Below, piece after piece: positions 1,195 through 39,240 of a DNA stretch of 64,000 nucleotides. The notes under the pieces are model-generated. The model did no database searches and had not been told where the DNA came from. It worked only from the letters and a program-made list of their open reading frames with translations. The translations under genes were made by a program, and so were the position numbers. Numbering within the stretch: the first letter of the stretch is position 1; each line of letters starts with the position of its first letter. Origin of the DNA: Patescibacteria group bacterium (lineage in GTDB: Bacteria > Patescibacteriota > Minisyncoccia > Phycocordibacterales > Phycocordibacteraceae); NCBI GenBank assembly GCA_030837225.1, contig JAUPKX010000007.1, positions 65,182 to 129,181 on the forward strand. The letters run 5' to 3'.

Positions 1195-1893
1195 TCAACG
1201 TCCAAACACCAGAAGTGCTGCCTCTGCTTTCTGTAGGTCCTCGGGTGCAGTTACTTGTATCCAGAATGAGGCCTGTACTGCAGCAAGGGAGATTCCAGAC
1301 TCCTTAGATGCAGCGAGGACCGTTTGAGGGAGACCGTACTCATTGCTTCCAAGGGCTTTGGGCACCATGGGGTACTCGAAGAGGCGAGGGTCGAGCGCGA
1401 GCATATTCGTGTTCATGAGACCAGGCTTTCCTGTATGATCCCCTTCTTCAATATCGACGATGAAGCCACGCTCATCCATAACCATACGTCCCCCAGAAGC
1501 CATGGTCTCGGTCTTCTCAACGAGCACACTCCACTCTGGAGACGCAAAGCATGCCTCCACATCTTTGCGTGCGTAAAGATCGTCCCCCATCATCACAATG
1601 AATCGGTCTGACAGAAATGGTCGTGCGAGCCAGAGCGCACCTGCTGTGCCATTCAGGTCTTCCTGCTCAACGTATCGAATCCTGCGTCCACCAAACTCAT
1701 CCTTGAAGTACTCGCGGATAACATTTCCTTGATACCCGATTATGAGAATGACTTCTGTAACCTCAGGAGGAAGCGCATCGAGTTTATGCTCAATAAGAGT
1801 CTTTCCGTTAACGACGAGCATGGGTTTCGGCACTGACTGTGTCAGTTCCTTCATACGCGTGCCTTTTCCGGCGGCGAGGATGACAGCTTGCAT
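1195..1893 (-). CDS. sugar-phosphate nucleotidyltransferase (NTP_transferase family)
   Basis: N-terminal ILAAGKGTRM signature (G-x-G-T-R) and a Rossmann-like fold pattern. Confidence 0.75.
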   Translation of the reverse strand: MQAVILAAGKGTRMKELTQSVPKPMLVVNGKTLIEHKLDALPPEVTEVILIIGYQGNVIREYFKDEFGGRRIRYVEQEDLNGTAGALWLARPFLSDRFIVMMGDDLYARKDVEACFASPEWSVLVEKTETMASGGRMVMDERGFIVDIEEGDHTGKPGLMNTNMLALDPRLFEYPMVPKALGSNEYGLPQTVLAASKESGISLAAVQASFWIQVTAPEDLQKAEAALLVFGR

Positions 1894-1986
1894 AGAAATA
1901 GAGTCCCTCAGGCTATGTCCCTAACATTGCGACAGGACGCCACTATTTGCAATGGCAGCATAGAGCACGCCTGGTATCATTCCCTC

Positions 1987-3120
1987 ATGATACCCAAAGG
2001 CCTCTGCGGACTCCTACTCGGCGTACTGTTATTTGCTCCTATACTTGCAACGGCACAAGAACCCTCCGAGAACGCATTCCCTACTGTCGAGCAACAGCGT
2101 CTTTTGAAGGCTCGCGTGCTTGAAGCCTCCCCTTCTTTACAAAAGGTAGTAGAGGGCACGAGTATAACAACCGACACCCAGTCTCTCACCATTGAAGTCC
2201 TCGAAGGAGAAGATGAGGGACGTACCGTTACCTTCGAGAATGACTTCACCCAGCTTGAGAAAGGAGACGTGTTTTATGTGCGGCACATTGTAGGAGGATT
2301 CGATCTTGAAACGTGGGCCGTATCCGATCCCTACCGACTCAACATTCTCCTTTGGATCGGTATCGCGTTCCTTGTTTTGGTGTCTCTGTTTGGAGGTATT
2401 CAGGGCATTCGAGGAGTTGCCTCTCTTGCAGGAAGTCTTGTCCTTATCTTCTATCTCCTTTTACCGAGCATCCATAACGGCATCTCTCCTATCCTGGTCT
2501 CGCTTGGCGTAGTCTCGCTCATAATCCTTGTTGGTTCCTATATAACGCACGGCGTGAACCGAACGACGACTGCTGCCATGCTTGGTATGGTGGCGACCAT
2601 TGTGATAACGGGTATCGCTACCTATTTAGCTATTGACCTAGCACAGCTCTCTGGATTCACCTCTGACGAAAACGTCTACCTAAACTTCAACACGGATGGA
2701 CGTATCGATATGGTTGGTCTCCTATTCGGCGGAATCATGATTGGTCTTCTTGGTGTTCTCTATGACAGCGCCATTGGGCAGGCTGTAGCCGTTGAGGAGC
2801 TATACCGTGCGAGCGCAAACTACACGCGAAAACAAGTCTATCTTCGGGGGCTTCGTATCGGCCGCGAGCACATCGGGGCACTCGTAAACACTCTTGCGAT
2901 TGCGTACGTTGGTGCTTCACTTCCCCTTCTCCTCCTTCTCAAGCAATCAACCGCAAGTCCTCTCTATCTATTAAATAGCGAGGTCTTTGCAACAGAGATT
3001 ATTCGCATTCTCATGAGCTCTATTGGCATCATCCTCGCGGTTCCTGTTACAACCTTGATTGCCACCTACATGCTGAAAGGTGCTCAAGCATCGGGACTAC
3101 ACTCGCACACAAAAGAGTAG
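1987..3120 (+). CDS. YibE/F-family polytopic membrane protein
   Basis: Multiple TM helices and the characteristic YibE/F layout. The ORF opens at 1888, but the signal/TM segment begins right after Met-34 (1987). The start is uncertain. Confidence 0.6.
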   Translation: MIPKGLCGLLLGVLLFAPILATAQEPSENAFPTVEQQRLLKARVLEASPSLQKVVEGTSITTDTQSLTIEVLEGEDEGRTVTFENDFTQLEKGDVFYVRHIVGGFDLETWAVSDPYRLNILLWIGIAFLVLVSLFGGIQGIRGVASLAGSLVLIFYLLLPSIHNGISPILVSLGVVSLIILVGSYITHGVNRTTTAAMLGMVATIVITGIATYLAIDLAQLSGFTSDENVYLNFNTDGRIDMVGLLFGGIMIGLLGVLYDSAIGQAVAVEELYRASANYTRKQVYLRGLRIGREHIGALVNTLAIAYVGASLPLLLLLKQSTASPLYLLNSEVFATEIIRILMSSIGIILAVPVTTLIATYMLKGAQASGLHSHTKE

Positions 3121-3121
3121 T

Positions 3122-3136
3122 TGCAAATGTTTTGCA
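3122..3136. promoter_or_regulatory. candidate Fur/Zur box (TGCAAAtgtTTTGCA, a 6-3-6 palindrome) upstream of the fur-family gene
   Basis: Perfect inverted repeat 20-35 nt upstream of the start codon at 3156. Position and symmetry fit an autoregulatory Fur-family operator. Confidence 0.35.
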
Positions 3137-3155
3137 TCTATAGTACGGTGCGTAT

Positions 3156-3563
3156 ATGGATTTCCCTACCCTCCTACGCGAGAAGGACCTACGCGCTACT
3201 CCAGGTCGGCTCCAGGTGCTCGAGATACTTTCCTCAGAAAAGCATCCGGTTACTGTGGATCAGATAAAGGAGAAGCTCTCCTCGAGCCTTGATACGGTTA
3301 CGCTGTATCGCACACTCGAAACCCTAAGGGAAGCGCGTATTGTTGACCGGACCGATCTGCAGCATGGCCATGCCCACTACGAACTTCTCGTTGGACGACC
3401 GCACCATCATCACGCGGTATGTCGCTCGTGCGGATTAATCGAGGACATTGAGGTGCCGCACCCAGCAAAGCCTGAGAAACAAGCAGAACAAGCGACTAAG
3501 AAATTCTCCACAATAGATTCCTATGCACTTGAGTTCTTTGGCACCTGCACCAGCTGTGCGTAA
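3156..3563 (+). CDS. Fur-family metalloregulator, likely Zur (zinc uptake regulator)
   Basis: ATPGRLQVLEIL DNA-binding helix, His-rich HHHH patch, CxxC...CxxC zinc site. It lies immediately upstream of a ZIP transporter. Confidence 0.8.
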   Translation: MDFPTLLREKDLRATPGRLQVLEILSSEKHPVTVDQIKEKLSSSLDTVTLYRTLETLREARIVDRTDLQHGHAHYELLVGRPHHHHAVCRSCGLIEDIEVPHPAKPEKQAEQATKKFSTIDSYALEFFGTCTSCA

Positions 3564-3575
3564 TTCTTTAGTACC

Positions 3576-4322
3576 ATGATCGTCCTCCCCACTCTCGCCA
3601 GCGTCATACTCATCAGCCTCATTTCCTTCGTTGGTGCAATAACACTCGTACTAAACAAGACCCTGCTCCACAAGAGTATCTTTATACTCGTCTCTCTTGC
3701 GGTTGGCGCCCTTCTCGGAGACGTGTTCATACACATCATCCCAGAGGCATACGAAGCAATCGGAAACTCTACCCTTGTATCGCTCGCCATCATTACGGGC
3801 ATCATCATGTTCTTTATTCTTGAGAAAGCTCTGCACTGGCATCATCACACTACGGAGCACGCCGAAGAGCACGCACATCCTATTGGACGTTTGCTGCTAG
3901 TATCTGACGGCGTCCACAACTTCATAGACGGTCTCATAATCGCAGCCGGCTACATGGTTTCAATCGAAGTTGGTATCGCAACAACCATCGCCGTTATCCT
4001 TCATGAGATCCCTCAAGAGATTGGGAACTTCGGCGTTCTACTGCATGCAGGATACTCAAAGACTAAAGCGCTTTGGTTCAACTTCCTCTCTGCACTCACG
4101 GCAATTGCCGGAGCGGTTGTAGCGCTCCTTCTGGGAAGCATTACAGAACAATTTGCGATGTGGCTCCTCCCTATTGCTGCAGGCGGATTCATCTACGTCG
4201 CACTCTCGGACCTCATACCAGAACTTCATAAAAGCAACCGTGGCAGCCAAGGTGTCGTTCAGGTTATCGCCATTATCGTGGGCGTTGCTGCTATAGCAGC
4301 CCTTCTCGCGCTTGAAGCGTAG
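3576..4322 (+). CDS. zupT: ZIP-family divalent metal transporter (ZupT-like)
   Basis: HEIPQEIGNFGVLL ZIP signature, 8 TM segments, and a His-rich loop (HWHHHTTEHAEEHAH). Confidence 0.85.
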   Translation: MIVLPTLASVILISLISFVGAITLVLNKTLLHKSIFILVSLAVGALLGDVFIHIIPEAYEAIGNSTLVSLAIITGIIMFFILEKALHWHHHTTEHAEEHAHPIGRLLLVSDGVHNFIDGLIIAAGYMVSIEVGIATTIAVILHEIPQEIGNFGVLLHAGYSKTKALWFNFLSALTAIAGAVVALLLGSITEQFAMWLLPIAAGGFIYVALSDLIPELHKSNRGSQGVVQVIAIIVGVAAIAALLALEA

Positions 4323-4473
4323 ACACAACATACGAGGGAAGATGCTGATATTCACTTAGAATCGTTACTGCACGCAGCCTTTGACTTGATGCTGCTGGCA
4401 GCCCGGGACGACGTTAGTACTTTTACGGTTTATGTTTAGGTATTCGAAAATACCAATGAATAGAGCGCATTAA

Positions 4474-4863
4474 CTAAAGGAACCGTACTGAAAAGCTATA
4501 CATTCCCATGGCGCAGGTGCCTTCAAGTGTTCCCTGGGCAACCTTTATGGGTACTTCAACTTCAGTTATACCCGTTGCAACAAGGTTCTTGCGGAACCCG
4601 ACACTTGGAATAGTTACGGCTGACGAGCAATCGTAAGTACCGCTTGTCTTTAAACGAAGCACTGTGGGTACTCCTGCTTTGGCCGTGGTGAGCTTAGGAG
4701 AGTACCCGCCCTTAGCATCTATTTCGATTATTTGTTTCTCGCCTTCCATAAAGACATTCTGTACGACCTGCTCTGTACCATCTGATTTCTGGCTTAATAC
4801 AATGGCCCCTGCAATTACCAAGGCGGCTACGAGAACCGACAGAATCATTGGCAGATTTTTCAT
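4474..4863 (-). CDS. small exported/anchored cupredoxin-like protein (putative metal-binding)
   Basis: N-terminal signal anchor and a beta-rich domain with C-terminal Cys/Met motifs (DCSSAV...TCAMGMYSF). Last gene of the csoR-copA operon. Confidence 0.45.
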   Translation of the reverse strand: MKNLPMILSVLVAALVIAGAIVLSQKSDGTEQVVQNVFMEGEKQIIEIDAKGGYSPKLTTAKAGVPTVLRLKTSGTYDCSSAVTIPSVGFRKNLVATGITEVEVPIKVAQGTLEGTCAMGMYSFSVRFL

Positions 4864-4877
4864 AATGTAAGTCTACG

Positions 4878-5894
4878 CTAAAAGCTAATAAACGGCTGGA
4901 TAATCCCTGCAGCAACCAAACTGTTCATGAGATTAAAGAGACCAAAGAATATCACCACAAGACCAGCTGTCTTGTAGAACACGCCTGTCTGCATCTTTTT
5001 GATGCTGAGGGCACTAAAACTTAGGAGTGCGAGCACTGGCAGCGTCCCCAGCGCAAAAACGAACATGGTCAGAGCTCCCTCAGTATAGCTGCCAGTTGTA
5101 AGCGTATAGATCTGCATGGACTGCGTGAAGCCGCACGGTAAGAAGAAGGTCGCGGCCCCAATAAGGAGCGGCGTCATGGCACCTGCGGCCCCCTTAAGGC
5201 CCCTCACACCCTTTCCAAAAGAACTGGGGAGTGTAGGGATAAGCTTCTTAGTCCAAGGGAAAATATCAAGAAGGTTTAAACCCAGAATGAGAAGGATTAC
5301 GGCGACGAGGAAACTCAGAACAAATGTGCCAGTTCCCCCAAGCTGAAACGCTGAACCTACTGCCCCGATCACACCCCCAAGTACAAAGAACGAAATGAGA
5401 CGACCGACATGAAATAAGACTTGAGGACGCACGGCTTCGCCCACCTTTGCGTAGCTTGCTGACATAGAAAGTACGAGACCTCCAACTACTGCCATGCAGG
5501 TTGATACAGAGGCAACAAGGCCAATGACAAAGGCAGTGGCATAGGTCATTTCCCCACCTCCCACAAGGTTCACAATGCCGAGCTTTTGAAGGACGATGAA
5601 AAGTCCTACAAAAACTGCTGCAATTGGAATGGCATAGCTGAAATCAGCCCAGCGCACCGTGTGTGCCTGTTTTTCCAAATGGACGCTATAGCCATGGTGC
5701 TTCAGGGGTTTCGTAAGGAGCTCCGCGATTTGTTCAGGTGTCCGGTCGCCAAACTCACCCGTAACGTCCACGGTATGCGTTTTGAGCGAAGACTCGGCAT
5801 GGGTAACTTCAGGCAAGTCCATCAATTCCCCCTCGGTGAGCACAATACAGGACTTGCAGTGCATTCCCTGAATGTGAAAGGTGTAAGTATCCAT
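4878..5894 (-). CDS. heavy-metal-associated (HMA) domain fused to a DsbD/CcdA-like transmembrane thiol-disulfide transporter domain
   Basis: N-terminal GMHCKSC metal-binding motif, then a polytopic membrane domain with conserved Cys in TM helices (STCMAVVGG, FFLPCGFTQ), as in the DsbD_2/CcdA family. Confidence 0.7.
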   Translation of the reverse strand: MDTYTFHIQGMHCKSCIVLTEGELMDLPEVTHAESSLKTHTVDVTGEFGDRTPEQIAELLTKPLKHHGYSVHLEKQAHTVRWADFSYAIPIAAVFVGLFIVLQKLGIVNLVGGGEMTYATAFVIGLVASVSTCMAVVGGLVLSMSASYAKVGEAVRPQVLFHVGRLISFFVLGGVIGAVGSAFQLGGTGTFVLSFLVAVILLILGLNLLDIFPWTKKLIPTLPSSFGKGVRGLKGAAGAMTPLLIGAATFFLPCGFTQSMQIYTLTTGSYTEGALTMFVFALGTLPVLALLSFSALSIKKMQTGVFYKTAGLVVIFFGLFNLMNSLVAAGIIQPFISF

Positions 5895-5895
5895 A

Positions 5896-8190
5896 TTAGA
5901 GCTTAGCGGTTTTTAATCGGAGTGAGTTGAGCACCACTGACACGCTTGAGAGTGCCATGGCAAGTCCCGCAACTACCGGTGAGAGAAGTATGCCAAAGAA
6001 CGGATAGAGAATACCTGCAGCAATCGGTATGCCTACTAAATTGTAGATGAAGGCCCAGAATAGGTTTTGTTTAATACCGGTCATAGTGAAGCGAGAAAGT
6101 CGTATCGCCTTCACTAGCTTTGCAATGTCGCCGTGGAGGAGTGTGATTCCTGCCGTTTCAATAGCAACATCGGTTCCGGTTCCCATGGCAATACCTACAT
6201 CCGCCTGTGCTAGTGCCGGCGCATCGTTCACTCCATCGCCTGCCATAGCAACCACACGACCGGCAGCCTGCAATGCTTTTATTTTAATAAGCTTTTCGCC
6301 CGGCAATGCCTCAGCCACCACATCATCGATACCCACTTCTTTAGCTATGGCGAGCGCTGTTTGTTTGTTATCGCCCGTAAGCATGACAACTGAAATGCCC
6401 ATGCTGTGCAGCTTCTTAATGGCCGCAGCCGCTTCGGGCTTGAGTGCATCTGCAATCAGTACCAATCCCAGCACCTCCGTACGCGTAGCCAGAAAAACAG
6501 GTGTCCTCCCCTTACTCGTATGGTTTTCAAGGGCCTTGCCATCAAGACTAAGTGTAAGGTCGCTTATTAGTCGAGAATTTCCTGCAAAGTATTCTGTACC
6601 TCTCACGAATCCCGTAACTCCCTTGCCTTCAATAATTTGAAACGTATCCGTTGCGCTTGCTGTTACACCATTATCTTTTGCGTACGCAAGAAGTGCGCTG
6701 GCAAGTGGATGTTCAGATTTATTCTCAAGCGACGCGAGAATACCGAGGATATCTTCTTCTGAACGACTGCCGTAGGTTTCTATGGCAACAACTTCCGGCT
6801 TACCCTTTGTGATCGTGCCGGTTTTGTCTACAACAACCGTATTTACACTTCTGAGCTTCTGGAGCGTAGCCGCATCTTTAATAAGAATACCCTCACTAGC
6901 TCCCTTGCCCACTCCAACAATAACGGCGATAGGCGTAGCAAGTCCGAGCGCGCAAGGGCATGCAATCACAAGAATGCCCACGAAAGACGTGAGACCGAGC
7001 GTAAGTGCCTGCGCAAAGCCGAGCACGGGGATACCAAAGAAGAGCCATGCCGCAAATACAAGAACGGCGAATACTAGGACGATAGGAACAAAGACGCTAG
7101 AGATCTTGTCCGCAAGTCCTTGAATGGGTGCCTTGCTGCCCTGTGCCTCACCTACCATTTTAATGATGCTGGCAAGTAACGTTTCTGAACCTACTTTGGT
7201 CGCCTTGAATATAAAGTGACCTTTAGTATTTAAGGTCCCAGCAACAACGGCATCACCTGCTTTTTTCTCTACCGGTATAGGTTCACCCGTAACCATTGCC
7301 TCGTCTACATAGGAACTTCCTTCCGTAAGAATGCCATCTACTGGTATCTTCCCGCCCGGCTTCATAACAATAAAATCGCCATGCACGACCTGGTCTATAG
7401 GAACCTCAACCTCTGTACCATCGCGCATGACGAGGGCCCTTTTTGCCTGAAGACCAAGAAGCTTCTGAATGGCATCACCGGTCCTGAGCTTCGATTGTGC
7501 CTCAAGATACTTACCAAGGGCGATAAGCGCGATTACTACGATGGTTACGTCGTAATAGGTCTGCTCAACATTAAGAAAAGAGCGCAGCGGCTCCTCAAAG
7601 GCAGTGAGGATAAAGCTGTAAAGAAAGGCAACGGAAGTACCGATACCGATGAGGGTATCCATATTCGCCTTTCCATAACGGAGAAAACGATAGAGGCCGA
7701 GCAGATATGGCTTACCCACCACCACCATAGTGTAGGTAGCAAAGATCGGTAAGAGGTGGTGAAAGAACTCGTACCAAATCTCTGGAATGCTACCCAACCA
7801 GCCGAACTGTGCAGTCATTTCCCAGCCCATAACAAAGACACTGAATGCAGCCAGCGGAAGTACGGAAAGAACCCTCCATCGCATGTCCTTAATCTCTGCT
7901 AACTTCTCTGTCTTAGACTGACTTAGGCCGGTATGGGCAGCGTGCTCGTCAGCCGTCATGCTCATACTTTCAGCTGAAGGTATCACGAGAGTGTAGCCAA
8001 GAGGCTTTATCAGTTCAGAAAGATGCTGAGGGTTCGTCTTCGTATCGTCGAAAGCAATCTTTGCGGTCTCGGTGCCATAGTTCACTTCAACGTGTCCAAC
8101 ACCTTCAATTTTTTTAACAGTACGCTCAATTATGCCTGCACAAGAAGCGCAATGCATACCCTTGATCCGGTACGTTTTATGATTACTCAT
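5896..8190 (-). CDS. copA: copper-translocating P1B-type ATPase
   Basis: N-terminal HMA motif [12 protein letters not shown] metal site ([11 protein letters not shown]), DKTGTIT phosphorylation motif, [10 protein letters not shown] hinge. Confidence 0.95.
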
Positions 8191-8191
8191 G

Positions 8192-8458
8192 CTATTTTCG
8201 TTTTAGACGATAGACGGCGAGGATTTCCTGTTTTGCCCTAGTAATATTCCCCGACTTTATCTGACTAGAGGCACAGGTATCCAAATGATTCTCAAGGAGT
8301 AAGTCCTCAACACCTGAAAGGGCGCTTTTAATAGCCGAGGTTTGGGTAATAACGTCGATGCAGTACGTATCTTTCTCAACAAGTGTTTGAAGTCCACGTA
8401 TCTGTCCTTCGACGCGACGGAGACGATTTTGTATCTGCTTTTTAGTTTCAAGTTTCAT
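8192..8458 (-). CDS. csoR: CsoR/RcnR-family copper-sensing transcriptional repressor
   Basis: 88 aa all-helical protein with Cys-His-Cys ligand pattern (YCIDV...H...C). Sits directly upstream of copA. Confidence 0.85.
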
Positions 8459-8461
8459 ATA

Positions 8462-8490
8462 CTAAATATACCCCTATGGGGTATATTTAG
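8462..8490. promoter_or_regulatory. CsoR-type operator: perfect 13-bp inverted repeat CTAAATATACCCC-tat-GGGGTATATTTAG
   Basis: The GC core flanked by AT arms (ATACCCC...GGGGTAT) matches known CsoR operators. It sits 3 nt upstream of the csoR start codon. Confidence 0.6.
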
Positions 8491-8587
8491 TCAAACTTAC
8501 ATATTGGATACGGTAATACTTGCGGTATCTCTAGGATCCGAAAACATAATCAAGATTATGTTTTCAAGGGTTCTAACTTTTCCTAAT

Positions 8588-8842
8588 CTAAGCCAAAAAA
8601 CTCTTTTCAACCTCCTCCTTATTGATGCCGTTTACCACACGAGCGTAGCCCATGCCCTGCAGAATTATATTGGCTCTCTCGGCGCGCCCACCACTTGCGC
8701 AATAGACGACGATACTGGCATCCTTTGGAATCTGCGCTAGGGCACTCGCCACAAAGTCCGTAACAGGTATGTTTATTGCTCCATGCACATGGTCAACAGC
8801 AAATTCCTCTTGGGTACGGACATCGATTAAGATTTTATTCAT
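8588..8842 (-). CDS. single-domain rhodanese-like sulfurtransferase
   Basis: Active-site loop VVYCASGGRAERA (C-x2-G-x-R). Confidence 0.8.
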   Translation of the reverse strand: MNKILIDVRTQEEFAVDHVHGAINIPVTDFVASALAQIPKDASIVVYCASGGRAERANIILQGMGYARVVNGINKEEVEKSFLA

Positions 8843-9004: not shown

Positions 9005-10225
9005 TTAGTGCCCTTGCCCCTCTATAACTTTGCCGTCATAGATAGCTTTGTTTTCTTCTCCTGAAACCTTAAGAACTCCCCAAAGACCCCGATCAACGCG
9101 CGAGAGCGCATGATCAACAAGGATGTACTTTCCAGGAACCTGGGTATCGAACTCAACAACCGTGGCGCCACCGGCCGGCACGAGCGTTGTCTGGACATCG
9201 GTATGGGGTTCAGAGGTTATAGACCCTTCGGGAAATACCTTGTCGAATACTTCACCAATGACATGGAAGGAAGAGATGAGATTCACGCCTCCATTACCCA
9301 TATAGATTCGTGCAGTCTCCCCTGTCTGCATTTGCATAGACTCCCCAAGACCTCCTGTTTTCCCATTGAAGACCATGTAGGTCGGTTGCCCTGCAAGCAT
9401 CGCTTCAGCATCAAAGAGTTGAATACCTTTGCGACCCATGCCGCCAGTCGTGTAGAACTCGCCCTGCATAACGTAGTACTCGTGATCAACAGAAGGAAGG
9501 CCCTCTTCAGGCTCAACCAGGATGAGTCCGTACATGCCATGCGTCATGTGATTCGCTACATTCGGTGTCGCACAGTGGTAGACGAAGAGTCCGGGATGGA
9601 GTGCCTTGAAGGTAACAGTGGCAGACTCCCCCGGGGCAACCATCGTTGAAACCGCGCCTCCTCCAGGACCAGTAACGGCATGCAGGTCGATATTGTGGTG
9701 ATGTAGGCTCGTCGGATCGTTATGAAGTGTGAGCTCTACCGTGTCCCCTTCCCGCACCCGAATCATTGGTCCTGGCACTTGACCATCAAAGGTCCAATAG
9801 TTGATGAACACGCCCGGTGCCATCTCTGCAATAACTTCCTTAGTAGTTAGCTCCACTTTTACGAGCTCCGGTTCCGTACGTGTAATGGGTGACGGAACGT
9901 CGTTCGGATTGCGTGCGATGTTCTCAACACGCTCGAACGAATTGAAGTTAGAGAAGAACTTTAATACATTCCCCAACGAGAGCACAGGACCTTCAACTGG
10001 ACCGTACGTTTTGAGGAAAAACGGGTATTCAAGTCCACGCGGCAAACCATGCGGGGCATAGAAGAAGATCGAGACACCGAGGAAGACCGTGACAAGGGTA
10101 ACCGTTAGCCAGGTTGAGTGGAGCTTTCGCAAGACGAGGTAGAGAAAGACACCTGCAAAAATGAATGCAATGAAAAGACCGAACCATTCAACAAGAATCG
10201 TGCGCAGAAGGTAAATGATTTCCAT
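9005..10225 (-). CDS. nirK: copper-containing nitrite reductase NirK with N-terminal membrane anchor
   Basis: Two cupredoxin domains. Type-1/type-2 Cu ligands HHHNIDLHAVTG and VYHCATPNVANHMTHGMYGLILVEP align with canonical NirK (YHCAP...H..GMYG). Two N-terminal TM helices. Confidence 0.85.
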   Translation of the reverse strand: MEIIYLLRTILVEWFGLFIAFIFAGVFLYLVLRKLHSTWLTVTLVTVFLGVSIFFYAPHGLPRGLEYPFFLKTYGPVEGPVLSLGNVLKFFSNFNSFERVENIARNPNDVPSPITRTEPELVKVELTTKEVIAEMAPGVFINYWTFDGQVPGPMIRVREGDTVELTLHNDPTSLHHHNIDLHAVTGPGGGAVSTMVAPGESATVTFKALHPGLFVYHCATPNVANHMTHGMYGLILVEPEEGLPSVDHEYYVMQGEFYTTGGMGRKGIQLFDAEAMLAGQPTYMVFNGKTGGLGESMQMQTGETARIYMGNGGVNLISSFHVIGEVFDKVFPEGSITSEPHTDVQTTLVPAGGATVVEFDTQVPGKYILVDHALSRVDRGLWGVLKVSGEENKAIYDGKVIEGQGH

Positions 10226-10234
10226 AAGAAAGGA

Positions 10235-10588
10235 TTAGTACGGGATTTTGCACTCGTCAAAACAGTGCGCGTCGCGATTTAAAGTATAGATGCGCTCGCG
10301 TCCGGAATCAACACTCGTTACCGCATCAACAGAACGCAACACATTCAAATGATGGGTAATGGTTGGCTGCTGCAGCTCGAGTTCCGCGGTCAGCATAGTA
10401 ACGGTCATCCCCTCCTTGGCCTTTCCAAGGAGACAGACCAGCTGGTATCGACTGCGGCTCCCCACGACCTTAAAGCAGTCCGGACAGAGCTCCTCCTCTG
10501 CGGAATCCTTCACCCATTCAGGTCTCGGATACGTTTTCTCCTTCTTCTTCGCGCTCGTAGCAGATCTCCCCACCTTTTTTGTATTCAT
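10235..10588 (-). CDS. ArsR/SmtB-family metal-responsive transcriptional regulator
   Basis: Winged-HTH segment LQQPTITHHLNVLRSVDAV. Candidate metal sites ELCPDC (N-terminal) and HCFDEC (C-terminal). Confidence 0.75.
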   Translation of the reverse strand: MNTKKVGRSATSAKKKEKTYPRPEWVKDSAEEELCPDCFKVVGSRSRYQLVCLLGKAKEGMTVTMLTAELELQQPTITHHLNVLRSVDAVTSVDSGRERIYTLNRDAHCFDECKIPY

Positions 10589-10596
10589 AGATGACT

Positions 10597-10626
10597 GTCT
10601 ATTGGTATACTAAAAATCCAATAGAC
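10597..10626. promoter_or_regulatory. 9-bp inverted repeat (GTCTATTGG...CCAATAGAC) bracketing a TATACT -10-like hexamer between divergent arsR-like and nrdD genes
   Basis: Operator-like symmetry overlapping a putative promoter 42 nt upstream of the nrdD start. Confidence 0.35.
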
Positions 10627-10652
10627 GACTATCAATGTAACATGCTGCGCTT

Positions 10653-12803
10653 ATGAAAAAAGGAAAAACGTCTCGTTCTGAGGAAAAGAAAGGGTTTTCA
10701 CAAATAATCAAAAGAAGCGGCGCGCATGTTCCTTTCAAACGAGAGAAGATAGTTGCGGCTCTTACGAAGGCCGGGAATGCTACAAGCGAATACAATGCAG
10801 CTGATGCAGAGCATCTAACAGATTCTATTATCGCCCGAGCGGAAACACTTTCCTGCGAGTTTCCATCGGTTGAAGAGATACAAGACATTGCTGAACAGGT
10901 TCTGATGGAGGCATCGCATCACCAGACTGCAAAGGCATACATTGTGTACCGTAAACAGCATGCCGACATGCGAGCGCTTGCCGCGGCAGCTTCTGTTGAT
11001 CTCGTCGACGGGTACCTTGATCGACTTGATTGGCAGGTGAAGGAGAACAGCAACATGGACTACTCCCTTCAGGGACTGAACAATTACATCTTTTCTGAAG
11101 TGAGTAAGACGTACTGGCTCACTAAAGTGTACCCACAGGAAGTAAAGGTTGCACACGAGTCAGGAGATTTGCACCTACACGATCTCGGTACCCTCTCGGT
11201 ATATTGCGTCGGATGGGATCTGATGGATCTTCTATTAACGGGATTCCGTGGTGTTCCCGGAAAAATAGAGTCTGCGGCTCCGAAACATTTCCGTGCTGCC
11301 TTAGGGCAGGTCGTGAATTTCATGTATACGCTGCAGGGCGAGGCGGCGGGTGCAATCGCGTTCTCTAACTTCGACACTCTCCTCGCTCCCTTTATTCGAT
11401 ATGACAATCTCTCATACGAAGAGGTGAAGCAGGCGATGCAAGAATTCGTATTCAACATGAATGTGCCCACGCGTGTTGGCTTTCAAACGCCATTCTCAAA
11501 TATCACGCTCGATCTATCGCCATCTGCTAACTTCAAGGACTTGCCAGTCATACGAGGCGGCAAACCACAGGAAGAAACCTATGGAGACTTCCAAGTAGAA
11601 ATGGACACCATGAACCGTGCCTTCTTTGAAATTATGGCTGAGGGCGACGCTGCGGGACGTGTATTCACCTTCCCTATTCCTACCGTGAACGTAACCAAGG
11701 ACTTCGATTGGGATAACCAAAACCTGAATGGGCTCTGGGAAATAACCGCAAAATATGGCATTCCGTACTTCAGTAACTTCGTGAACTCCGACATGAAGCC
11801 TGAAGACACGCGGAGTATGTGCTGCCGTTTGCGTCTTGATCTTGAGGAGCTAGATCGCAGAGGGGGTGGTCTCTTCGGTGCTAACGCCTTAACAGGATCG
11901 GTTGGTGTTGTAACTATTAACCTTCCGCGTCTCGGCTATATTGCAAAGAGTACAGAAGAGTTCCAGACACTTCTTGCTCAGCAAATGGACATTGCCAAGC
12001 AAAGTCTTGAGATAAAGCGAAAAGCCCTTGAGCGCCTTACGCGAGCGAACCTCTATCCGTATACAAAGTTCTATCTCCGCAACATCGCGGAAATGCACGG
12101 CGAGTACTGGAAGAATCACTTCTCCACCATTGGCCTTGTTGGAATGAACGAAGCGGCGAAGAACCTCTTGGGAGAAGACATTGGCACAGAAACGGGACAT
12201 GCATTTGCGGAAGAAACACTCCTCTTCATGCGTGAGCGACTCGTTGCATATCAAAAAGACACCGGAAACCTCTACAACCTTGAGGCGACTCCTGCAGAAG
12301 GAACCGCATATCGTCTTGCCCTGAAAGATAAGAAACAGTATCCAGATATTATTGTCGCGAACGAGACGGAATACGCAAAGGGTGCAGAGCCCTTCTATAC
12401 CAACTCCTCACATCTCCCCGTTAATTACACGGATGACATTATCGAAACTCTAGAACTTCAAGATTCGCTTCAAACCAAGTACACCGGCGGGACGGTTATT
12501 CATGTGTTTCTTGGTGAACGTATTCATGATGCACGTGCGGTGCCGCAATTGGTGCGCAAGATTTGCCAGCAATTCAAGCTCCCGTACTTCACACTCACCC
12601 CAACATTCAGCGTCTGTCCGTCACATGGTTACGTGTCAGGCGAACACCCGCTCTGCCCTACCTGTAAAAGCGAGTGCGAAGTATATTCGCGCATCGTCGG
12701 GTACCTCCGTCCTGTGTCGCAGTGGAATGCGGGCAAGCAGTCAGAATTCTCAGTCAGAGAAACCTACGTAACCGAGCCTTCTGTTGTTCCAACGCTCGTA
12801 TGA
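10653..12803 (+). CDS. nrdD: anaerobic ribonucleoside-triphosphate reductase (class III RNR)
   Basis: N-terminal ATP-cone, C-terminal Zn ribbon (CPSHG...CPTCKSEC) and glycyl-radical motif (SRIVGYLRPVSQWNAGKQSEF). Confidence 0.9.
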   Translation: MKKGKTSRSEEKKGFSQIIKRSGAHVPFKREKIVAALTKAGNATSEYNAADAEHLTDSIIARAETLSCEFPSVEEIQDIAEQVLMEASHHQTAKAYIVYRKQHADMRALAAAASVDLVDGYLDRLDWQVKENSNMDYSLQGLNNYIFSEVSKTYWLTKVYPQEVKVAHESGDLHLHDLGTLSVYCVGWDLMDLLLTGFRGVPGKIESAAPKHFRAALGQVVNFMYTLQGEAAGAIAFSNFDTLLAPFIRYDNLSYEEVKQAMQEFVFNMNVPTRVGFQTPFSNITLDLSPSANFKDLPVIRGGKPQEETYGDFQVEMDTMNRAFFEIMAEGDAAGRVFTFPIPTVNVTKDFDWDNQNLNGLWEITAKYGIPYFSNFVNSDMKPEDTRSMCCRLRLDLEELDRRGGGLFGANALTGSVGVVTINLPRLGYIAKSTEEFQTLLAQQMDIAKQSLEIKRKALERLTRANLYPYTKFYLRNIAEMHGEYWKNHFSTIGLVGMNEAAKNLLGEDIGTETGHAFAEETLLFMRERLVAYQKDTGNLYNLEATPAEGTAYRLALKDKKQYPDIIVANETEYAKGAEPFYTNSSHLPVNYTDDIIETLELQDSLQTKYTGGTVIHVFLGERIHDARAVPQLVRKICQQFKLPYFTLTPTFSVCPSHGYVSGEHPLCPTCKSECEVYSRIVGYLRPVSQWNAGKQSEFSVRETYVTEPSVVPTLV

Positions 12804-13486
12804 TCTTCGGGGGCTTCGAGAAGTGCACGCTCGTTGACTACCCGGGCAAGGTAGCCTGCATGGTGTATACCATTGGGTGCAATTTCCGCTGTCCCTACTG
12901 CCATAACCCAGAACTCGTAGATGAAACGGTCGAAACAACCTACAGCGAGGCTGCCATTCTTGATTTCCTCGATACCAGGAAGGGCCTACTCGATGGTGTA
13001 GTTATCACGGGTGGCGAACCAACGATGCATGAAGAATTGCCCGCGTTCGCTCGGCGCGTGAAAGAGAAGGGGTTTCTGGTAAAACTCGATACAAACGGTA
13101 CTAATCCGGAAATGCTTCGGCGAACTATCGATGAAGGCTTGGTTGACTACGTCGCAATGGACATAAAGTCACCGCTTGATTCTTACAGCCAGACAGTTGC
13201 GCGGGCGGTTGATGTGGAAGCGATACGCGAAAGTATTAGTATATTGCTTGCCTCCTCTATTGAGTACGAGTTCCGGACGACAATCGTGAAGGGTCTGTTG
13301 TCGCCAGAAGATCTAAAACGTATCGGCGAGGCAATACAGGGAGCCAAGTCCTACTACCTTCAGAAATTCGTGCCGACAAAGATCCTCAACCCTCAATTCA
13401 AGCGGAAAGTAACGTATACAGACGAAGAGTTTGTAGAGTTTCAGAAAATAATGCACGAGTATGTTGAAACCTGCAAAATACGCTGA
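12800..13486 (+). CDS. nrdG: anaerobic RNR activating protein (radical SAM)
   Basis: CNFRCPYCHN radical-SAM cluster motif. ATGA start/stop overlap with nrdD; the ORF-track start at 12674 is upstream of the likely Met. Confidence 0.85.
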   Translation: MIFGGFEKCTLVDYPGKVACMVYTIGCNFRCPYCHNPELVDETVETTYSEAAILDFLDTRKGLLDGVVITGGEPTMHEELPAFARRVKEKGFLVKLDTNGTNPEMLRRTIDEGLVDYVAMDIKSPLDSYSQTVARAVDVEAIRESISILLASSIEYEFRTTIVKGLLSPEDLKRIGEAIQGAKSYYLQKFVPTKILNPQFKRKVTYTDEEFVEFQKIMHEYVETCKIR

Positions 13487-14675
13487 ACTATATCTGGACT
13501 ATGCTGCTGGGACACCAGTGGCTCCTGAAATACTTGAAGCCATGCTTCCATATTTCGGAAACGAGTACCATAACCCCTCATCAATGCACGCAGGCGGGCG
13601 TAAGGCTCATAGAGTACTCGACGAAGCTAGAGCAGCCATTGCGGGAATGATTAATGCAGAGAGCGACGAGATCATCTTTACTGGTTCCGGTACCGAATCG
13701 GCTAACCTGGCAATTATTGGAGCCGCACGAGCTGCTAAAGCAAAAGGCAACCACGTCATCATATCAAGCGTGGAGCACAAGGCGGTGCTTGAAGCTGCTA
13801 AAAGTCTCACCAAGGAGGGGTTCGAAGTAACGTGTCTTCCGGTTGACCGGTATGGAATGATTGACCCCGGTACTCTTATCTCACACCTACGTGACGAAAC
13901 AATCCTTGTTTCTGTCATCTACGCAAACAATGAAATCGGTACAGTCGTCCCCATACAAGAACTCTCTGCAAAGATTGCTGATGCCTGCATCAACCGAAAG
14001 AGGCCCGTCTTTCATACCGATGCATGCCAAGCGATCTCGTATCTAGATGTCGATGTGCGGGCTCTTGGAGTTGACCTCATGACCTTCAACAGCGCGAAAG
14101 TGGGCGGCCCCACAGGGGTGGCAGCACTCTACAAGCGGCGCGATGTTCGCCTTTCCCCACTTATGTACGGTGGCGAGCAAGAACAATTGTTGCGGCCCGG
14201 AACGGAGGCCCTGCCTCTTCTGAAAGGATTCGCGCACGCACTCAAAATCGCAAGGAGTCTTCGGGCAAAGGAAGTGGATCGATTGCTGGAACTTCGCCAG
14301 TACTTCATTCACGAGCTAGAGAATCGTATACCAGGACTTATAGTGAACGGCCATCCAACTGCTGTCTTGCCTAACGTAGTACACGTAACTATTCCGGGAA
14401 TTGAAGGAGAGGCAATGCTTCTCATGCTCGACGAGCATGGCATTGCAGTATCAACGGGGTCCGCCTGTTCTGCATTCGACCTCCGACCTTCGCATGTCTT
14501 GTCTGCGATAGGCCAGGAGAGCGATCTCATTCATGGAAGTATTCGATTCTCCTTTGGGCGCGACACAGACAAGGAGAAGCTTGAGTATGTACTCCACGTA
14601 TTCCCCGCTATCGTAGCGCGCCTACGATCGATATCGTCAGTAACAACCCATGCATATGAAAAACAACCCCGGTGA
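13461..14675 (+). CDS. cysteine desulfurase (class V aminotransferase, NifS/IscS-like)
   Basis: LDYAAGTPV N-terminus, PLP-lysine region (FNSAKVGGP), active-site loop STGSACS. Confidence 0.85.
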   Translation: MLKPAKYAELYLDYAAGTPVAPEILEAMLPYFGNEYHNPSSMHAGGRKAHRVLDEARAAIAGMINAESDEIIFTGSGTESANLAIIGAARAAKAKGNHVIISSVEHKAVLEAAKSLTKEGFEVTCLPVDRYGMIDPGTLISHLRDETILVSVIYANNEIGTVVPIQELSAKIADACINRKRPVFHTDACQAISYLDVDVRALGVDLMTFNSAKVGGPTGVAALYKRRDVRLSPLMYGGEQEQLLRPGTEALPLLKGFAHALKIARSLRAKEVDRLLELRQYFIHELENRIPGLIVNGHPTAVLPNVVHVTIPGIEGEAMLLMLDEHGIAVSTGSACSAFDLRPSHVLSAIGQESDLIHGSIRFSFGRDTDKEKLEYVLHVFPAIVARLRSISSVTTHAYEKQPR

Positions 14676-15084
14676 CGTCGGCAACTGGCTTTACAGCGAG
14701 ACTGTGCGCGACCATTTCTTCGCGCCCAGAAATCTTTTGCTTGATGAAGCAACATATGAAGCCGATGGGATAGGAATTGTCGGAAGCCCCGCCTGTGGTG
14801 ACATGATGGCAGTTTGGATAAGGGTGGATCCAAAGGCAGAGCGTATAACCGAGTGCAAGTGGCGGACATTTGGTTGCGCCTCCGCTATCGCCTCAACTTC
14901 GATGATGTCAGTTATGGTGACCGAGGAAGGTGGCATGCTGCTTACCCGAGCAAAAAAACTTACTCCTGAAGCAATTATTGAACGCCTGGATGGGCTTCCA
15001 GACAGGAAATACCACTGTTCTGTGTTAGGACACCTCGCCATTCGTGAAGCAATCAAAGACTATGAACAAAATCATGGAGGATAA
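14650..15084 (+). CDS. Fe-S cluster scaffold protein, IscU/NifU N-terminal domain
   Basis: Three conserved Cys (GSPACGD, FGCASAI, YHCSVL). Confidence 0.85.
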   Translation: MHMKNNPGDVGNWLYSETVRDHFFAPRNLLLDEATYEADGIGIVGSPACGDMMAVWIRVDPKAERITECKWRTFGCASAIASTSMMSVMVTEEGGMLLTRAKKLTPEAIIERLDGLPDRKYHCSVLGHLAIREAIKDYEQNHGG

Positions 15085-15766
15085 GCTTGTATACGTAGTC
15101 ACAGAGAACAAGCGGGAGAATCACGATACGGTGACGCTTTTGCTTTCGTGCGAAAAAGGGTCTGTTCCGCCATTCGTTCCAGGTCAATTCATTAGCATCT
15201 ATTTCCCCGAGCTCAACACGCCCGAGGGTAAGTCGTACAGCATTTCGGGTCCTCCGGGCAAGGAAACAATGGAAATAACAATCAAGGGAATCGGCGAATT
15301 CTCTAACCGCCTTTGTGCCATGAAGCGAGGCGACAGAATTATCGGATCTTCCCCGTATGGTTTCTTTTATAGCGAACAGGATGATACTGGCTTGGTCATG
15401 ATTGCAGGCGGTATTGGCATAACACCGTTCCGCGGCATGATAGCTCATACTCTGGAACACGAGCCTGGACGAAGCATCAGCCTATTCCATAGCGCTAGAA
15501 CGGCTGCTGATCTGATTTTTGATAAAGAGCTAGCGAATGTATCTGGATTAGCAACGCATTATTTCGTTACAAGGGACACTGTTTCTTCCCCTCTTATTAC
15601 TCCAAGAAGAATGAAGCCTGAAGATATTGTTCGGAATTGCAGGCCTGAGCTCGCCGAATTTTTTATCTGCGGATCCATACCTTTCGTACGAGATCTATGG
15701 CATGGCCTCAAGAGCCACGGTATTGCCGAAGATAGAATTTACACTGAGGCTTTCTTTTCACACTAA
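15044..15766 (+). CDS. FAD/NAD(P)-binding oxidoreductase (ferredoxin-NADP reductase / PyrK-like electron-transfer flavoprotein)
   Basis: FAD-binding R-x-Y-S motif region (GKSYSISG), NAD-binding GGIGITP glycine-rich loop. Confidence 0.7.
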   Translation: MKQSKTMNKIMEDKLVYVVTENKRENHDTVTLLLSCEKGSVPPFVPGQFISIYFPELNTPEGKSYSISGPPGKETMEITIKGIGEFSNRLCAMKRGDRIIGSSPYGFFYSEQDDTGLVMIAGGIGITPFRGMIAHTLEHEPGRSISLFHSARTAADLIFDKELANVSGLATHYFVTRDTVSSPLITPRRMKPEDIVRNCRPELAEFFICGSIPFVRDLWHGLKSHGIAEDRIYTEAFFSH

Positions 15767-15847
15767 TGTCTTCTAGATTGCATCAATAGAACACTGTCGA
15801 TCGTGGATGCGCTTCGCTCTTATCTGCAGGCAAACCGTGTAATCGTG

Positions 15848-16167
15848 TTGCGGGGGCCGGAATCGAACCGGCGTCTGGAGGTTCTTTTACACCTACTGTT
15901 TCCAGAAGGAATGGACTATACCATGATCCTGAACCAGGATCCTCCCATTATAGTCTCTGAACCTTTCCCGGAAAATTCCGAGACTTGGCTGCTGATTGCC
16001 GAATCTTCTTGTTTTTCAAGCATTCACGCTCATCCTTTCGGATCACGTTGTAGCACAAGAAGCTCTAACGGTATTCCAGCAATTTAGAGAGTTTTTCCAC
16101 TACCCGTTACCGGATAGGGTCACGTTGTTCACATGAGCCTCCCGAGGTACCTCTCCTCTACCCCGCT
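15848..16167 (-). tRNA. tRNA(CAT), likely initiator-type Met, interrupted by a group I intron (exons 16133..16167 and 15848..15883)
   Basis: Joined exons give AGCGGGGTAGAGGAGAGGTACCTCGGGAGGCTCAT|AACCTCCAGACGCCGGTTCGATTCCGGCCCCCGCAA. This folds as a canonical cloverleaf: 7-bp acceptor with unpaired A1/A72, U8, D-stem GAGG/CCTC with A11:U24, anticodon stem GGAGG/CCTCC, loop CTCATAA, T-arm GCCGG-TTCGATT-CCGGC. No CCA is encoded. Confidence 0.75.
15884..16132 (-). mobile_element. 249-nt ORF-less group I self-splicing intron in the tRNA(CAT) anticodon loop, between the anticodon and position 37
   Basis: Contains the conserved group I core elements R (GTTCAGAGACTATAA) and S (ATGGTATAGTCC), giving P7 GACTA/TAGTC. 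U at the 5' splice site, terminal G at the 3' splice site, and a candidate P1 guide (GTGACCC) pairing with the exon GGCTCAT. Confidence 0.7.
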
Positions 16168-39163: not shown

Positions 39164-39240
39164 GCACCCTTAGCTCAGTTGGTTAGAGCACGGAGCTTAT
39201 ACCTCCGCGGTCCTTGGTTCGAGTCCAAGAGGGTGCACCA
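39164..39240 (+). tRNA. tRNA-Ile with rare anticodon TAT (UAU; decodes AUA), CCA encoded
   Basis: GCACCCTTAGCTCAGTTGGTTAGAGCACGGAGCTTATACCTCCGCGGTCCTTGGTTCGAGTCCAAGAGGGTGCACCA. Anticodon stem CGGAG/CTCCG, loop CTTATAC. Confidence 0.8.

Follow-up and report, generated by a model that had tools for sequence, protein, structure and literature searches.

A Cys4 regulator of the ArsR/SmtB fold between nirK and divergent ribonucleotide reductase genes in Patescibacteria

What governs a copper nitrite reductase in a bacterium with a reduced genome, and what might the enzyme be for? The question is raised by 64,000 nt of contig JAUPKX010000007.1 (positions 65,182 to 129,181 of the forward strand; GenBank assembly GCA_030837225.1) from a Patescibacteria group bacterium, hereafter the window, in which nirK follows a gene for a small regulator of the ArsR/SmtB fold, close to copper-export genes. 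A preliminary description of this DNA had proposed nitrite detoxification wired to metal, perhaps copper, status. NirK proteins with conserved ligands were reported in 2017 from Patescibacteria, or the candidate phyla radiation (CPR), with their role left open and with neither the regulator nor a linkage to ribonucleotide reductase (RNR) mentioned; the same account describes these bacteria as having no respiratory chain or nitric oxide (NO) reductase, and NO as more toxic than nitrite (Danczak et al. 2017, PMC5581439). The purpose of the Patescibacteria NirK has been unexplained since then, and we find that its gene often rides in a small regulon with RNR. Our analysis also supplies a predicted transcription factor–operator pair for a group in which almost no regulation is understood. 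NirK itself was already known, but the regulator's set of four cysteine ligands (Cys4), its subfamily, the operator and the RNR–NirK coupling appear undescribed in the literature searched, which covered ArsR and nirK, ArsR and RNR in Patescibacteria, and NrdR in CPR and held no description of this regulator.

Conserved neighbours of the regulator

To put the locus into context, we compared the best 80 of 267 matches to the regulator, taken as species-level Patescibacteria loci. NirK is the next gene downstream of the regulator in 41 of these 80 independent loci, mostly across a gap of ~6–30 nt and with otherwise different flanks, and exact-protein look-ups recover the pair with different flanks in three lineages; the pairing goes beyond chance. 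The first gene upstream, divergently oriented, is NrdJ (class II RNR) in 27 loci, NrdD (class III) in 16 and a fusion of an ATP-cone with NrdB (class I) in 11. Within 5 kb of the regulator, an RNR of any kind is found in 66 loci, NirK in 49 and both in 40, and CopA, CsoR and HMA-DsbD2 occur once each and rhodanese in none. The conserved partner of the regulator is a divergent RNR of any class, not the copper-export genes.

Each RNR class brings its own companions. The class III side carries NrdG, NifS, NifU and a ferredoxin-NADP reductase-like (FNR-like) flavin oxidoreductase, with the NrdD–NrdG–NifS–NifU string in 16 of the 80 loci and the FNR-like gene recurring in 22; the class II side carries DUF6580, DUF4430 and a PduO-type adenosyltransferase, and the class I side a PNPOx-like flavoprotein. 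Most CPR loci combine the regulator with a class I or II RNR, and there Fe-S assembly genes are missing from the neighbourhood. The slot 3′ of the regulator is filled almost only by oxidoreductases of O2 or nitrogen oxides (NOx): NirK or, in its place, cytochrome bd, an alternative oxidase or a membrane cytochrome-b5/cytochrome-d1 fusion. In four loci (L031, L078, L079 and L086) NirK lies on the RNR-operon side of the control region, in the orientation of the RNR.

Some partner genes have features of their own. The class I operons upstream of the regulator (L017-L024, L054, L061, L073 and L079) encode a 556-aa NrdA and a small subunit, NrdB (430 aa), with a fused ATP-cone. In most of them the next gene is that of the PNPOx-like flavoprotein (~130 aa), which the examined part of L021 lacks; a PNPOx-like gene also stands directly before NirK in L146, L156 and L163. 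In L023 (1696-3792), a membrane protein of ~695 aa combines transmembrane helices, cytochrome b5 and a cytochrome d1 (NirS-type) propeller (PF02239, 228 bits), and a fusion gene of the same kind ends 107 nt upstream of the regulator start in L011.

Paired operators in the divergent control region

The 64-nt intergenic region between the regulator gene, here arsR, and nrdD holds two 16-bp palindromes, O1 and O2, which flank a shared −10-like element at a centre-to-centre distance of 34 bp (Table 1). Read on the − strand, the final bases of O2 double as the first two, AT, of the regulator's start codon. The window contains no other perfect box, the expectation from a simple count being ~0.06; at up to one mismatch, shuffling gives an expectation of 1.46. 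O1 overlaps the −35-like TTGATA of the arsR promoter, which implies a leader of ~10–12 nt, and it also lies inside the nrdD leader; the nrdD −10 element overlaps that of arsR on the opposite strand. Each box lies over the −35-like hexamer of one promoter in the divergent pair and over the start or leader belonging to its counterpart.

Upstream regions of homologues share this design, ..TATATTGATAAnnnGTCTAT, a variable spacer with a TATAAT-like element, and ATAGAnnnnnnTCTATG. Among 73 unique upstream regions, O2 is perfect at the same position in 54 and has at most one mismatch in 59, and O1 is present in 64; some apparent misses come from a misassigned start codon of the regulator, the box being visible in the aligned upstream regions. 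In locus L011, a further O1/O2 pair separates NrdJ from the inserted cytochrome-d1 gene. Beyond the close relatives, an ATAGA-N6-TCTAT box stands directly upstream of five of six distinct distant family members (~30% identical). Because these members carry the box together with an invariant recognition helix, QPT..H, its conservation marks the box as the likely cognate site of the Cys4 family.

We also considered an RNA element upstream of the regulator and rejected it: no Rfam model matches at gathering thresholds, and what is conserved is a set of short palindromic half-sites at differing distances, a pattern typical of protein operators. One-mismatch boxes elsewhere in the window (15786, 21062, 42893 and 61947) are within chance expectation; the first of these, ATAGAACACTGTCGAT at 15786..15801, is the only one close to genes of the module, just past the FNR-like gene, and may likewise be chance.

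A Cys4 subfamily of ArsR/SmtB-fold regulators

The regulator matches the generic Pfam families HTH_5 (PF01022, 30.2 bits, cutoff 22) and HTH_20 (PF12840, 28 bits, cutoff 27), is borderline against the NCBIfam ArsR/SmtB model NF033788 (55.0 bits, cutoff 55) and matches no curated family beyond these. Its AlphaFold2 model (pLDDT 83.7) has a winged-helix fold with a short helix 1 (residues 36–42) and a helix 5 of only four residues (108–111), and the best Foldseek matches are ArsR, SmtB, HlyU and CzrA, with probability 1.00. Only ArsR-type domains were detected in it, and neither an Rrf2 (NsrR) nor a Crp/FNR (NnrR/DNR) domain, so that the earlier statement that the usual NO-responsive regulators are not involved is borne out. 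A threshold of E ≤ 1e-3 gives 673 homologues; among the best 120, which are 63–93% identical, all those with a source name come from Patescibacteria/CPR, which fits the reduced genome that had been supposed; in the nearest locus, L010, the regulator is 97% and NirK 92% identical to the proteins of the window. A profile search of 1.84 billion representatives recovered a tight core of seven clusters at E ≤ 1e-30, surrounded by a halo of ArsR-like proteins of 85–95 aa.

The two cysteine motifs that had been singled out in the preliminary description, LCPDC and HCFDEC, are fixed in 121 regulator sequences. The former places C35 and C38 at the start of helix 1, and the latter H108, C109 and C113 in the very short C-terminal helix; with C52 of helix 2, these residues are invariant in that set. 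Among 21 diverse sequences, down to 29% identity, the sole invariant cysteines are C35, C38, C109 and C113; C52 is not retained outside the CPR subfamily, and D106 and H108 vary across the wider family. The family hallmark is thus a CxxC at the N-terminus of helix 1 and a Cx2-4C at the C-terminus, the latter taking the place of most of helix 5; the recognition helix, QPT..H, is invariant as well. On the basis of its sequence and predicted fold, we assign the regulator to a distinct, uncurated Cys4 subfamily of the ArsR/SmtB winged-helix regulators, whose Cys4 site is a candidate new sensory site within a well-studied family.

As to its description as an ArsR/SmtB-type metalloregulator, the fold holds and the known metal sites do not. 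None of the known sensory sites of the family (α3 CVC, α3N or α5 DxH...HxxH/E) is present in full. The helix-3 region has no cysteine, and the α3 CVC site is therefore absent; D106 and H108 align with the α5 ligands D84 and H86 of CzrA, the first half of the α5 site, and the second half is missing, the regulator ending at residue 117.

Distant Cys4 relatives adjoin genes for NifS/NifU, thioredoxin, ferredoxin-thioredoxin reductase (FTR), ferredoxin, MsrB, DoxX and VKOR, and among those examined a metal efflux or uptake gene is never adjacent. One of them, P0138, heads a regulator–NifS–NifU string (L090:5001-7004); its ATAGA-N6-TCTAT box overlaps its own start codon, and a gene for a thioredoxin/FTR fusion lies beside the string.

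The structural neighbours raise the question of whether the protein could be a dithiol switch of the BigR/SqrR/HlyU type, in which C52 would pair with C109 or C113 in response to persulfide or reactive oxygen or nitrogen species, with the rhodanese 162 nt downstream of nirK supplying or consuming persulfide. HlyU, SqrR and BigR are indeed among the structural neighbours, the BigR model NF040642 gives a weak match (E = 1e-6), and in an alignment with 3jth C52 falls, by coordinate arithmetic, at what would be the position of Cys30 of Vibrio vulnificus HlyU. However, the BigR score of 28.6 bits is far from the cutoff of 155, the rhodanese is found in none of the 80 regulator loci, and family members both close and distant lack C52 and keep the other four cysteines invariant. 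We rejected this switch on the last ground, and regard it as very unlikely.

A putative repressor of two divergent operons

The findings are best accounted for, and on balance probably, by an autoregulated Cys4 repressor of the divergent arsR–nirK and nrdDG–nifSU operons that would respond to a redox, NO or Fe-S signal. Bound at O1 and O2, the regulator would repress its own operon and co-repress nrdD, nrdG, nifS, nifU and the FNR-like gene; joint repression is suggested because each box overlaps the −35 element of one operon and the start or leader of the other, and from this placement we infer repression rather than activation. Co-transcription of the regulator with nirK, as had been claimed, is very probable given the 9-nt gap on the same strand. 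At the dimer interface, the Cys4 site would most likely carry a metal-thiolate centre or an Fe-S cluster; the DNA would be set free once NO, O2 or the oxidation of thiols removed or modified this cofactor. The supply of RNR and of an enzyme that produces NO or consumes O2 or NOx would then be coupled to the redox or nitrosative state of the cell, not to copper. The hints of such a signal are the Cys4 site itself, the oxidoreductases in the downstream slot and the neighbours of the distant members (NifS/NifU, thioredoxin and FTR). NO also quenches RNR radicals, whatever the class of the enzyme. One precedent is the control of aniA by NsrR. Another is ArnR, a winged-helix regulator with a [4Fe-4S] NO sensor (PMC12343034).

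Several points weigh against this explanation, however. The promoters are consensus matches only, and a consensus scan finds a further promoter-like site within the regulator gene (10311..10283) that could give nirK some independent transcription. The spacer between the boxes varies in length across loci (10–11, 15 and 18 nt are commonest, 10–11 most frequent, and others run from 7 to 32), so that each box is probably bound separately from the other. The CPxC of the Cys4 site is rubredoxin- or zinc-knuckle-like and would fit a structural Zn(Cys)4 at least as well as an Fe-S cluster. The partner RNRs belong to all three classes, O2-requiring and O2-sensitive, so that a simple O2 logic does not fit. 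Furthermore, the synteny sample is biased towards close relatives of the query, and when the comparison is reversed and started from NirK, most loci have neither the regulator nor the box.

This reverse comparison drew on NirK loci in metagenome contigs, 65 of which have at least 450 nt of upstream sequence. The regulator stands directly before NirK in 7 of the 65, and the operator box was not found before the NirK genes without the regulator; in general, then, NirK can be expressed without the regulator. In ten further loci, genes of the RNR system (NrdG, PNPOx-like, DUF6580/NrdJ, FNR-like or NifSU) are found no more than 4 kb from NirK, which mostly lies just downstream of them; in some of the ten the regulator may lie past the flank examined. 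Others have surroundings usual for denitrifiers, with a Crp/FNR-like regulator and DUF1858, or with hemerythrin-like or NarK-like neighbours as judged from sequence. The placing of NirK behind an ArsR-type regulator holds for the window and for the 41 regulator loci in which the two are paired, and does not extend to NirK as a rule. NirK is a frequent but optional member of the Cys4 regulon, a passenger and not an obligate one.

The zinc-like knuckle and the loose tie to NirK give substance to a serious rival, which we think possible if doubtful: the Cys4 site would be a structural Zn site replacing the missing helix-5 dimer interface, and the protein a housekeeping RNR repressor, a stand-in for NrdR, with some other cue or none and NirK as an unlinked passenger. 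Zn ribbons, and structural Zn sites like those of Fur and PerR, typically have a CPxC knuckle and another pair of cysteines, and helix 5 spans only four residues in the model. Linkage to RNR holds whatever its class, the regulator occurs without NirK in 31 of the 80 loci and NirK without the regulator in most NirK loci, and the tandem palindromic boxes in an RNR promoter resemble the logic of NrdR boxes, which are likewise tandem palindromes in RNR promoters. The regulator lacks a nucleotide-sensing domain or ATP-cone, however, ATP-cones being found only in the RNR proteins; the downstream slot holds almost only O2/NOx oxidoreductases, unlike what random passengers would give; and the distant members adjoin redox-themed genes other than RNR.

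A more far-reaching version of the cofactor-bearing repressor can be put forward only tentatively. Cys4 proteins might form a new class of sensors bearing an Fe-S or redox-active metal-thiolate cofactor, with a family-wide operator. In Patescibacteria one of them would act as the master regulator of RNR and tie deoxynucleotide synthesis to NO or oxidants, including NO made by NirK at the cell's own surface. If so, the 'orphan' NirK of these non-respiring bacteria would have a regulatory or signalling role, not a respiratory or detoxifying one.

The copper genes and the copper reading

The copper-efflux operon and the rhodanese do adjoin nirK in the window, as had been pointed out; their adjacency is not conserved, CopA occurring in one and rhodanese in none of the 80 regulator loci. 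The csoR–copA unit has a predicted σ70-like promoter of its own (TTGACT-18-TATATT, 8494..8465), with a palindrome, TATACCCCATAGGGGTATA, at 8467..8485 within the promoter spacer and −10 region that resembles known CsoR boxes. Its translated CsoR carries the Cu(I) triad C33/H58/C62 and matches PF02583 (89 bits); the best NCBIfam model is that of the copper sensor RicR (73.8 bits, below the cutoff of 175). With this separate promoter, palindrome and sensor, and with RNR in 66 of 80 regulator loci against one each for CopA, CsoR and HMA-DsbD2, the copper genes appear to be mere neighbours that stand outside the regulator's circuit. On these grounds we rejected the wiring of nitrite reduction to copper or metal status. 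Perhaps these neighbours supply Cu to NirK.

A classical sensor of Cu(I) or of Zn/Cd, whose metal binding would release the DNA so that NirK follows copper status, is accordingly unlikely, even though there are reasons for proposing one. The protein has the ArsR/SmtB fold, with NF033788 at its cutoff; the alignment of D106 and H108 with CzrA places the Cys4 site at the location of α5 metal sites; a site rich in thiolates is well suited to Cu(I), Cd and Zn; and NirK needs copper, while genes for CopA, CsoR and a ZIP transporter lie close by in the window. Elsewhere, too, a minority of NirK loci have copper genes in the vicinity (CsoR in 4, CopA in 1 and HMA-DsbD2 in 1 of 80 NirK loci). Against it stand, besides the synteny counts and the copper operon's own control, the lack of the α3 CVC site and of half of the α5 site, the poor conservation of D106 and H108 in the wider family, and the fact that no examined family member adjoins a metal efflux or uptake gene. 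For annotation, the case is a warning that an ArsR-type gene beside copper genes is not necessarily a copper sensor.

The metal-handling cluster as a whole spans 1888..8485, with YibE/F (1888..3120), a ZIP transporter (3576..4322), HMA-DsbD_2, CopA and CsoR. On the − strand, nothing resembling an intrinsic terminator was detected from nirK to the rhodanese gene; a perfect 11-bp hairpin, GAAAACATAAT-CTTG-ATTATGTTTTC, lies just after the rhodanese stop (8540..8565, −) and is not followed by a T-run.

A membrane-tethered NirK with intact copper sites

NirK itself is complete. It scores 359.4 bits against the curated equivalog TIGR02376, 'copper-containing nitrite reductase' (cutoff 296.3), and residues ~100–402 align with the solved NirKs 6tfd, 3ziy/6qpt and 1kbv (E ~1e-101 to 1e-105). 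In these alignments the type 1 copper (T1Cu) ligands H177/C218/H226/M231, the type 2 copper (T2Cu) ligands H182/H217/H372 and the catalytic D180/H321, with I323, are all present, and the inactivating substitutions that had been feared were not found. The T2Cu histidines, D180, H321 and I323 are invariant across 19 regulator-linked CPR NirKs, as are the His, Cys and His positions of the T1Cu site; the axial T1Cu ligand is Met in 11 of them, as in the window (Met231), and Gln in 8. This Gln (HGQYG), with the other ligands kept, occurs in the NirKs of L018, L023, L024, L037, L054, L065, L073 and L074.

The first ~60 residues contain two hydrophobic segments (windows 3–37 and 37–58) joined by LRKLHS, and no Sec or Tat signal was seen; the order of domains is a two-helix membrane hairpin, a linker and two cupredoxin domains. 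The hairpin is also present in 43 related NirKs, and 'membrane-anchored', as the protein had been called, is therefore a reasonable term. Because the two hydrophobic helices are joined by a positively charged loop, hydropathy and the positive-inside rule predict an N-out/C-out topology, in which the catalytic domain would face outward. Taken together, the sequence is that of a complete, functional-looking membrane-tethered enzyme.

Compared with class II (AniA-type) NirKs and the Patescibacteria NirK clade, the protein has the same two cupredoxin domains, T1 and T2 ligands and catalytic Asp and His. By sequence, 2dv6 is also among its best solved relatives, and it differs from 3ziy, 2dv6 and 6tfd in having no fused cytochrome c or cupredoxin domain. 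It is tethered by its N-terminal hairpin, whereas AniA carries a lipid anchor and most NirKs have a cleaved signal peptide.

A conserved partner 3′ of NirK, such as an electron donor, was sought and rejected: the downstream genes are heterogeneous and none emerged. They include genes that are DoxX-like, VKOR-like or DUF1003-like by sequence appearance, with a Pfam DoxX match in L001-L003, and unknowns. Other denitrification genes (NorB, NosZ or Nar-like) were not among ten open reading frames (ORFs) scanned, a check that covers the 64-kb window and not the whole genome. The ten ORFs (eight of 410–726 aa and two shorter) are housekeeping: LigA, a PilB-type ATPase, RecG, FtsH, an amidase (probably GatA), SecY, a β-CASP/metallo-β-lactamase RNase (RNase J-like), YibE/F, a ZIP transporter and one without a Pfam match.

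Comparison with known regulators

The Cys4 regulator shares with CzrA, SmtB, CadC and ArsR the winged helix, the small size, a palindromic operator overlapping its own promoter and the region in which the ligands cluster, around helices 1 and 5 where α5 sites lie. It differs from these ArsR/SmtB proteins in having neither an α3 CVC nor a complete α5 site, in its helix 5 of ~4 residues and in a regulon of RNR and oxidoreductases, not metal efflux.

NrdR, the general bacterial repressor of RNR, has a Zn-ribbon followed by an ATP-cone, contains a Cys4 motif and acts at tandem 16-bp boxes. The present regulator resembles it in the tandem 16-bp palindromic boxes at RNR operons of any class and in a Cys4 motif; it differs in the sequence of the box and in its ArsR winged helix, with no ATP-cone.

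NsrR represses aniA. Should the proposed signal be right, the Cys4 regulator would be like NsrR (Neisseria aniA/norB) and ArnR (Corynebacterium, PMC12343034) in having a Cys-ligated cofactor through which NO releases the promoters of nitrogen-oxide genes. By sequence and fold it belongs with neither, NsrR being an Rrf2 protein and the sensor of ArnR a distinct C-terminal domain that has three Cys. A likeness to Fe-S homeostasis regulators of the IscR/SufR type lies in the gene context, in the regulator–NifS–NifU string headed by a distant Cys4 member and in the nifS–nifU genes of the divergent operon of the window; the fold family is a different one, and most CPR Cys4 loci have no Fe-S assembly genes.

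Layout of the locus and further observations

The features of the locus are collected in Table 1. The + strand string from nrdD ends with the FNR-like gene, and the start codon of nrdG is uncertain, the mechanical ORF starting at 12674.

Table 1. Positions of the operators, promoter-like sites and genes in the window
Feature	Position	Strand	Description and basis
Operator O2	10587..10602	.	ATAGATGACTGTCTAT (+ strand); perfect 5-6-5 palindrome, ATAGA-N6-TCTAT
Operator O1	10621..10636	.	ATAGACGACTATCAAT (+ strand); ATTGA-N6-TCTAT on the − strand; 1 mismatch
arsR-nirK promoter-like site	10607..10635	-	TTGATA-17 nt-TAGTAT; consensus match only
nrdD promoter-like site	10584..10611	+	TTCATA-16 nt-TGnTATACT; consensus match only
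ArsR/SmtB-fold regulator gene	10235..10588	-	117 aa; ORF list, Pfam, NCBIfam
nirK, copper nitrite reductase	9005..10225	-	406 aa; TIGR02376, PDB alignments
Rhodanese	8588..8842	-	84 aa; Pfam/NCBIfam; outside the module; 162 nt 3′ of nirK
CsoR-type repressor	8192..8458	-	88 aa; Pfam/NCBIfam; outside the module; 129 nt past rhodanese
CopA	5896..8190	-	Pfam/NCBIfam; overlapped by the csoR end; outside the module
HMA-DsbD_2 membrane protein	4878..5894	-	Pfam/NCBIfam; outside the module
NrdD, class III anaerobic ribonucleotide reductase with ATP-cone	10653..12803	+	Pfam NRDD 648 bits + ATP-cone
NrdG activase, radical SAM	12785..13486	+	Pfam Radical_SAM, Fer4_12
NifS-type cysteine desulfurase	13461..14675	+	Pfam Aminotran_5
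NifU/IscU scaffold	14650..15084	+	Pfam NifU_N
FNR-like NAD(P)H flavin oxidoreductase	15044..15766	+	Pfam NAD_binding_1, FAD_binding_6

Two observations concern tRNA genes of the window. An Rfam group I intron match (68.7 bits, 15892..16123, −) lies within a tRNA body at ~15810..16167; with the intron removed, ARAGORN finds a tRNA with the insertion in its anticodon loop, the identity of the tRNA depending on the exact splice sites. Patescibacteria tRNA genes that carry group I introns have recently been reported (PMC13011429), and the present case agrees with this. A tRNA-Ile with the anticodon TAT (39164..39240, +) points to a reading of AUA that is unusual for bacteria.

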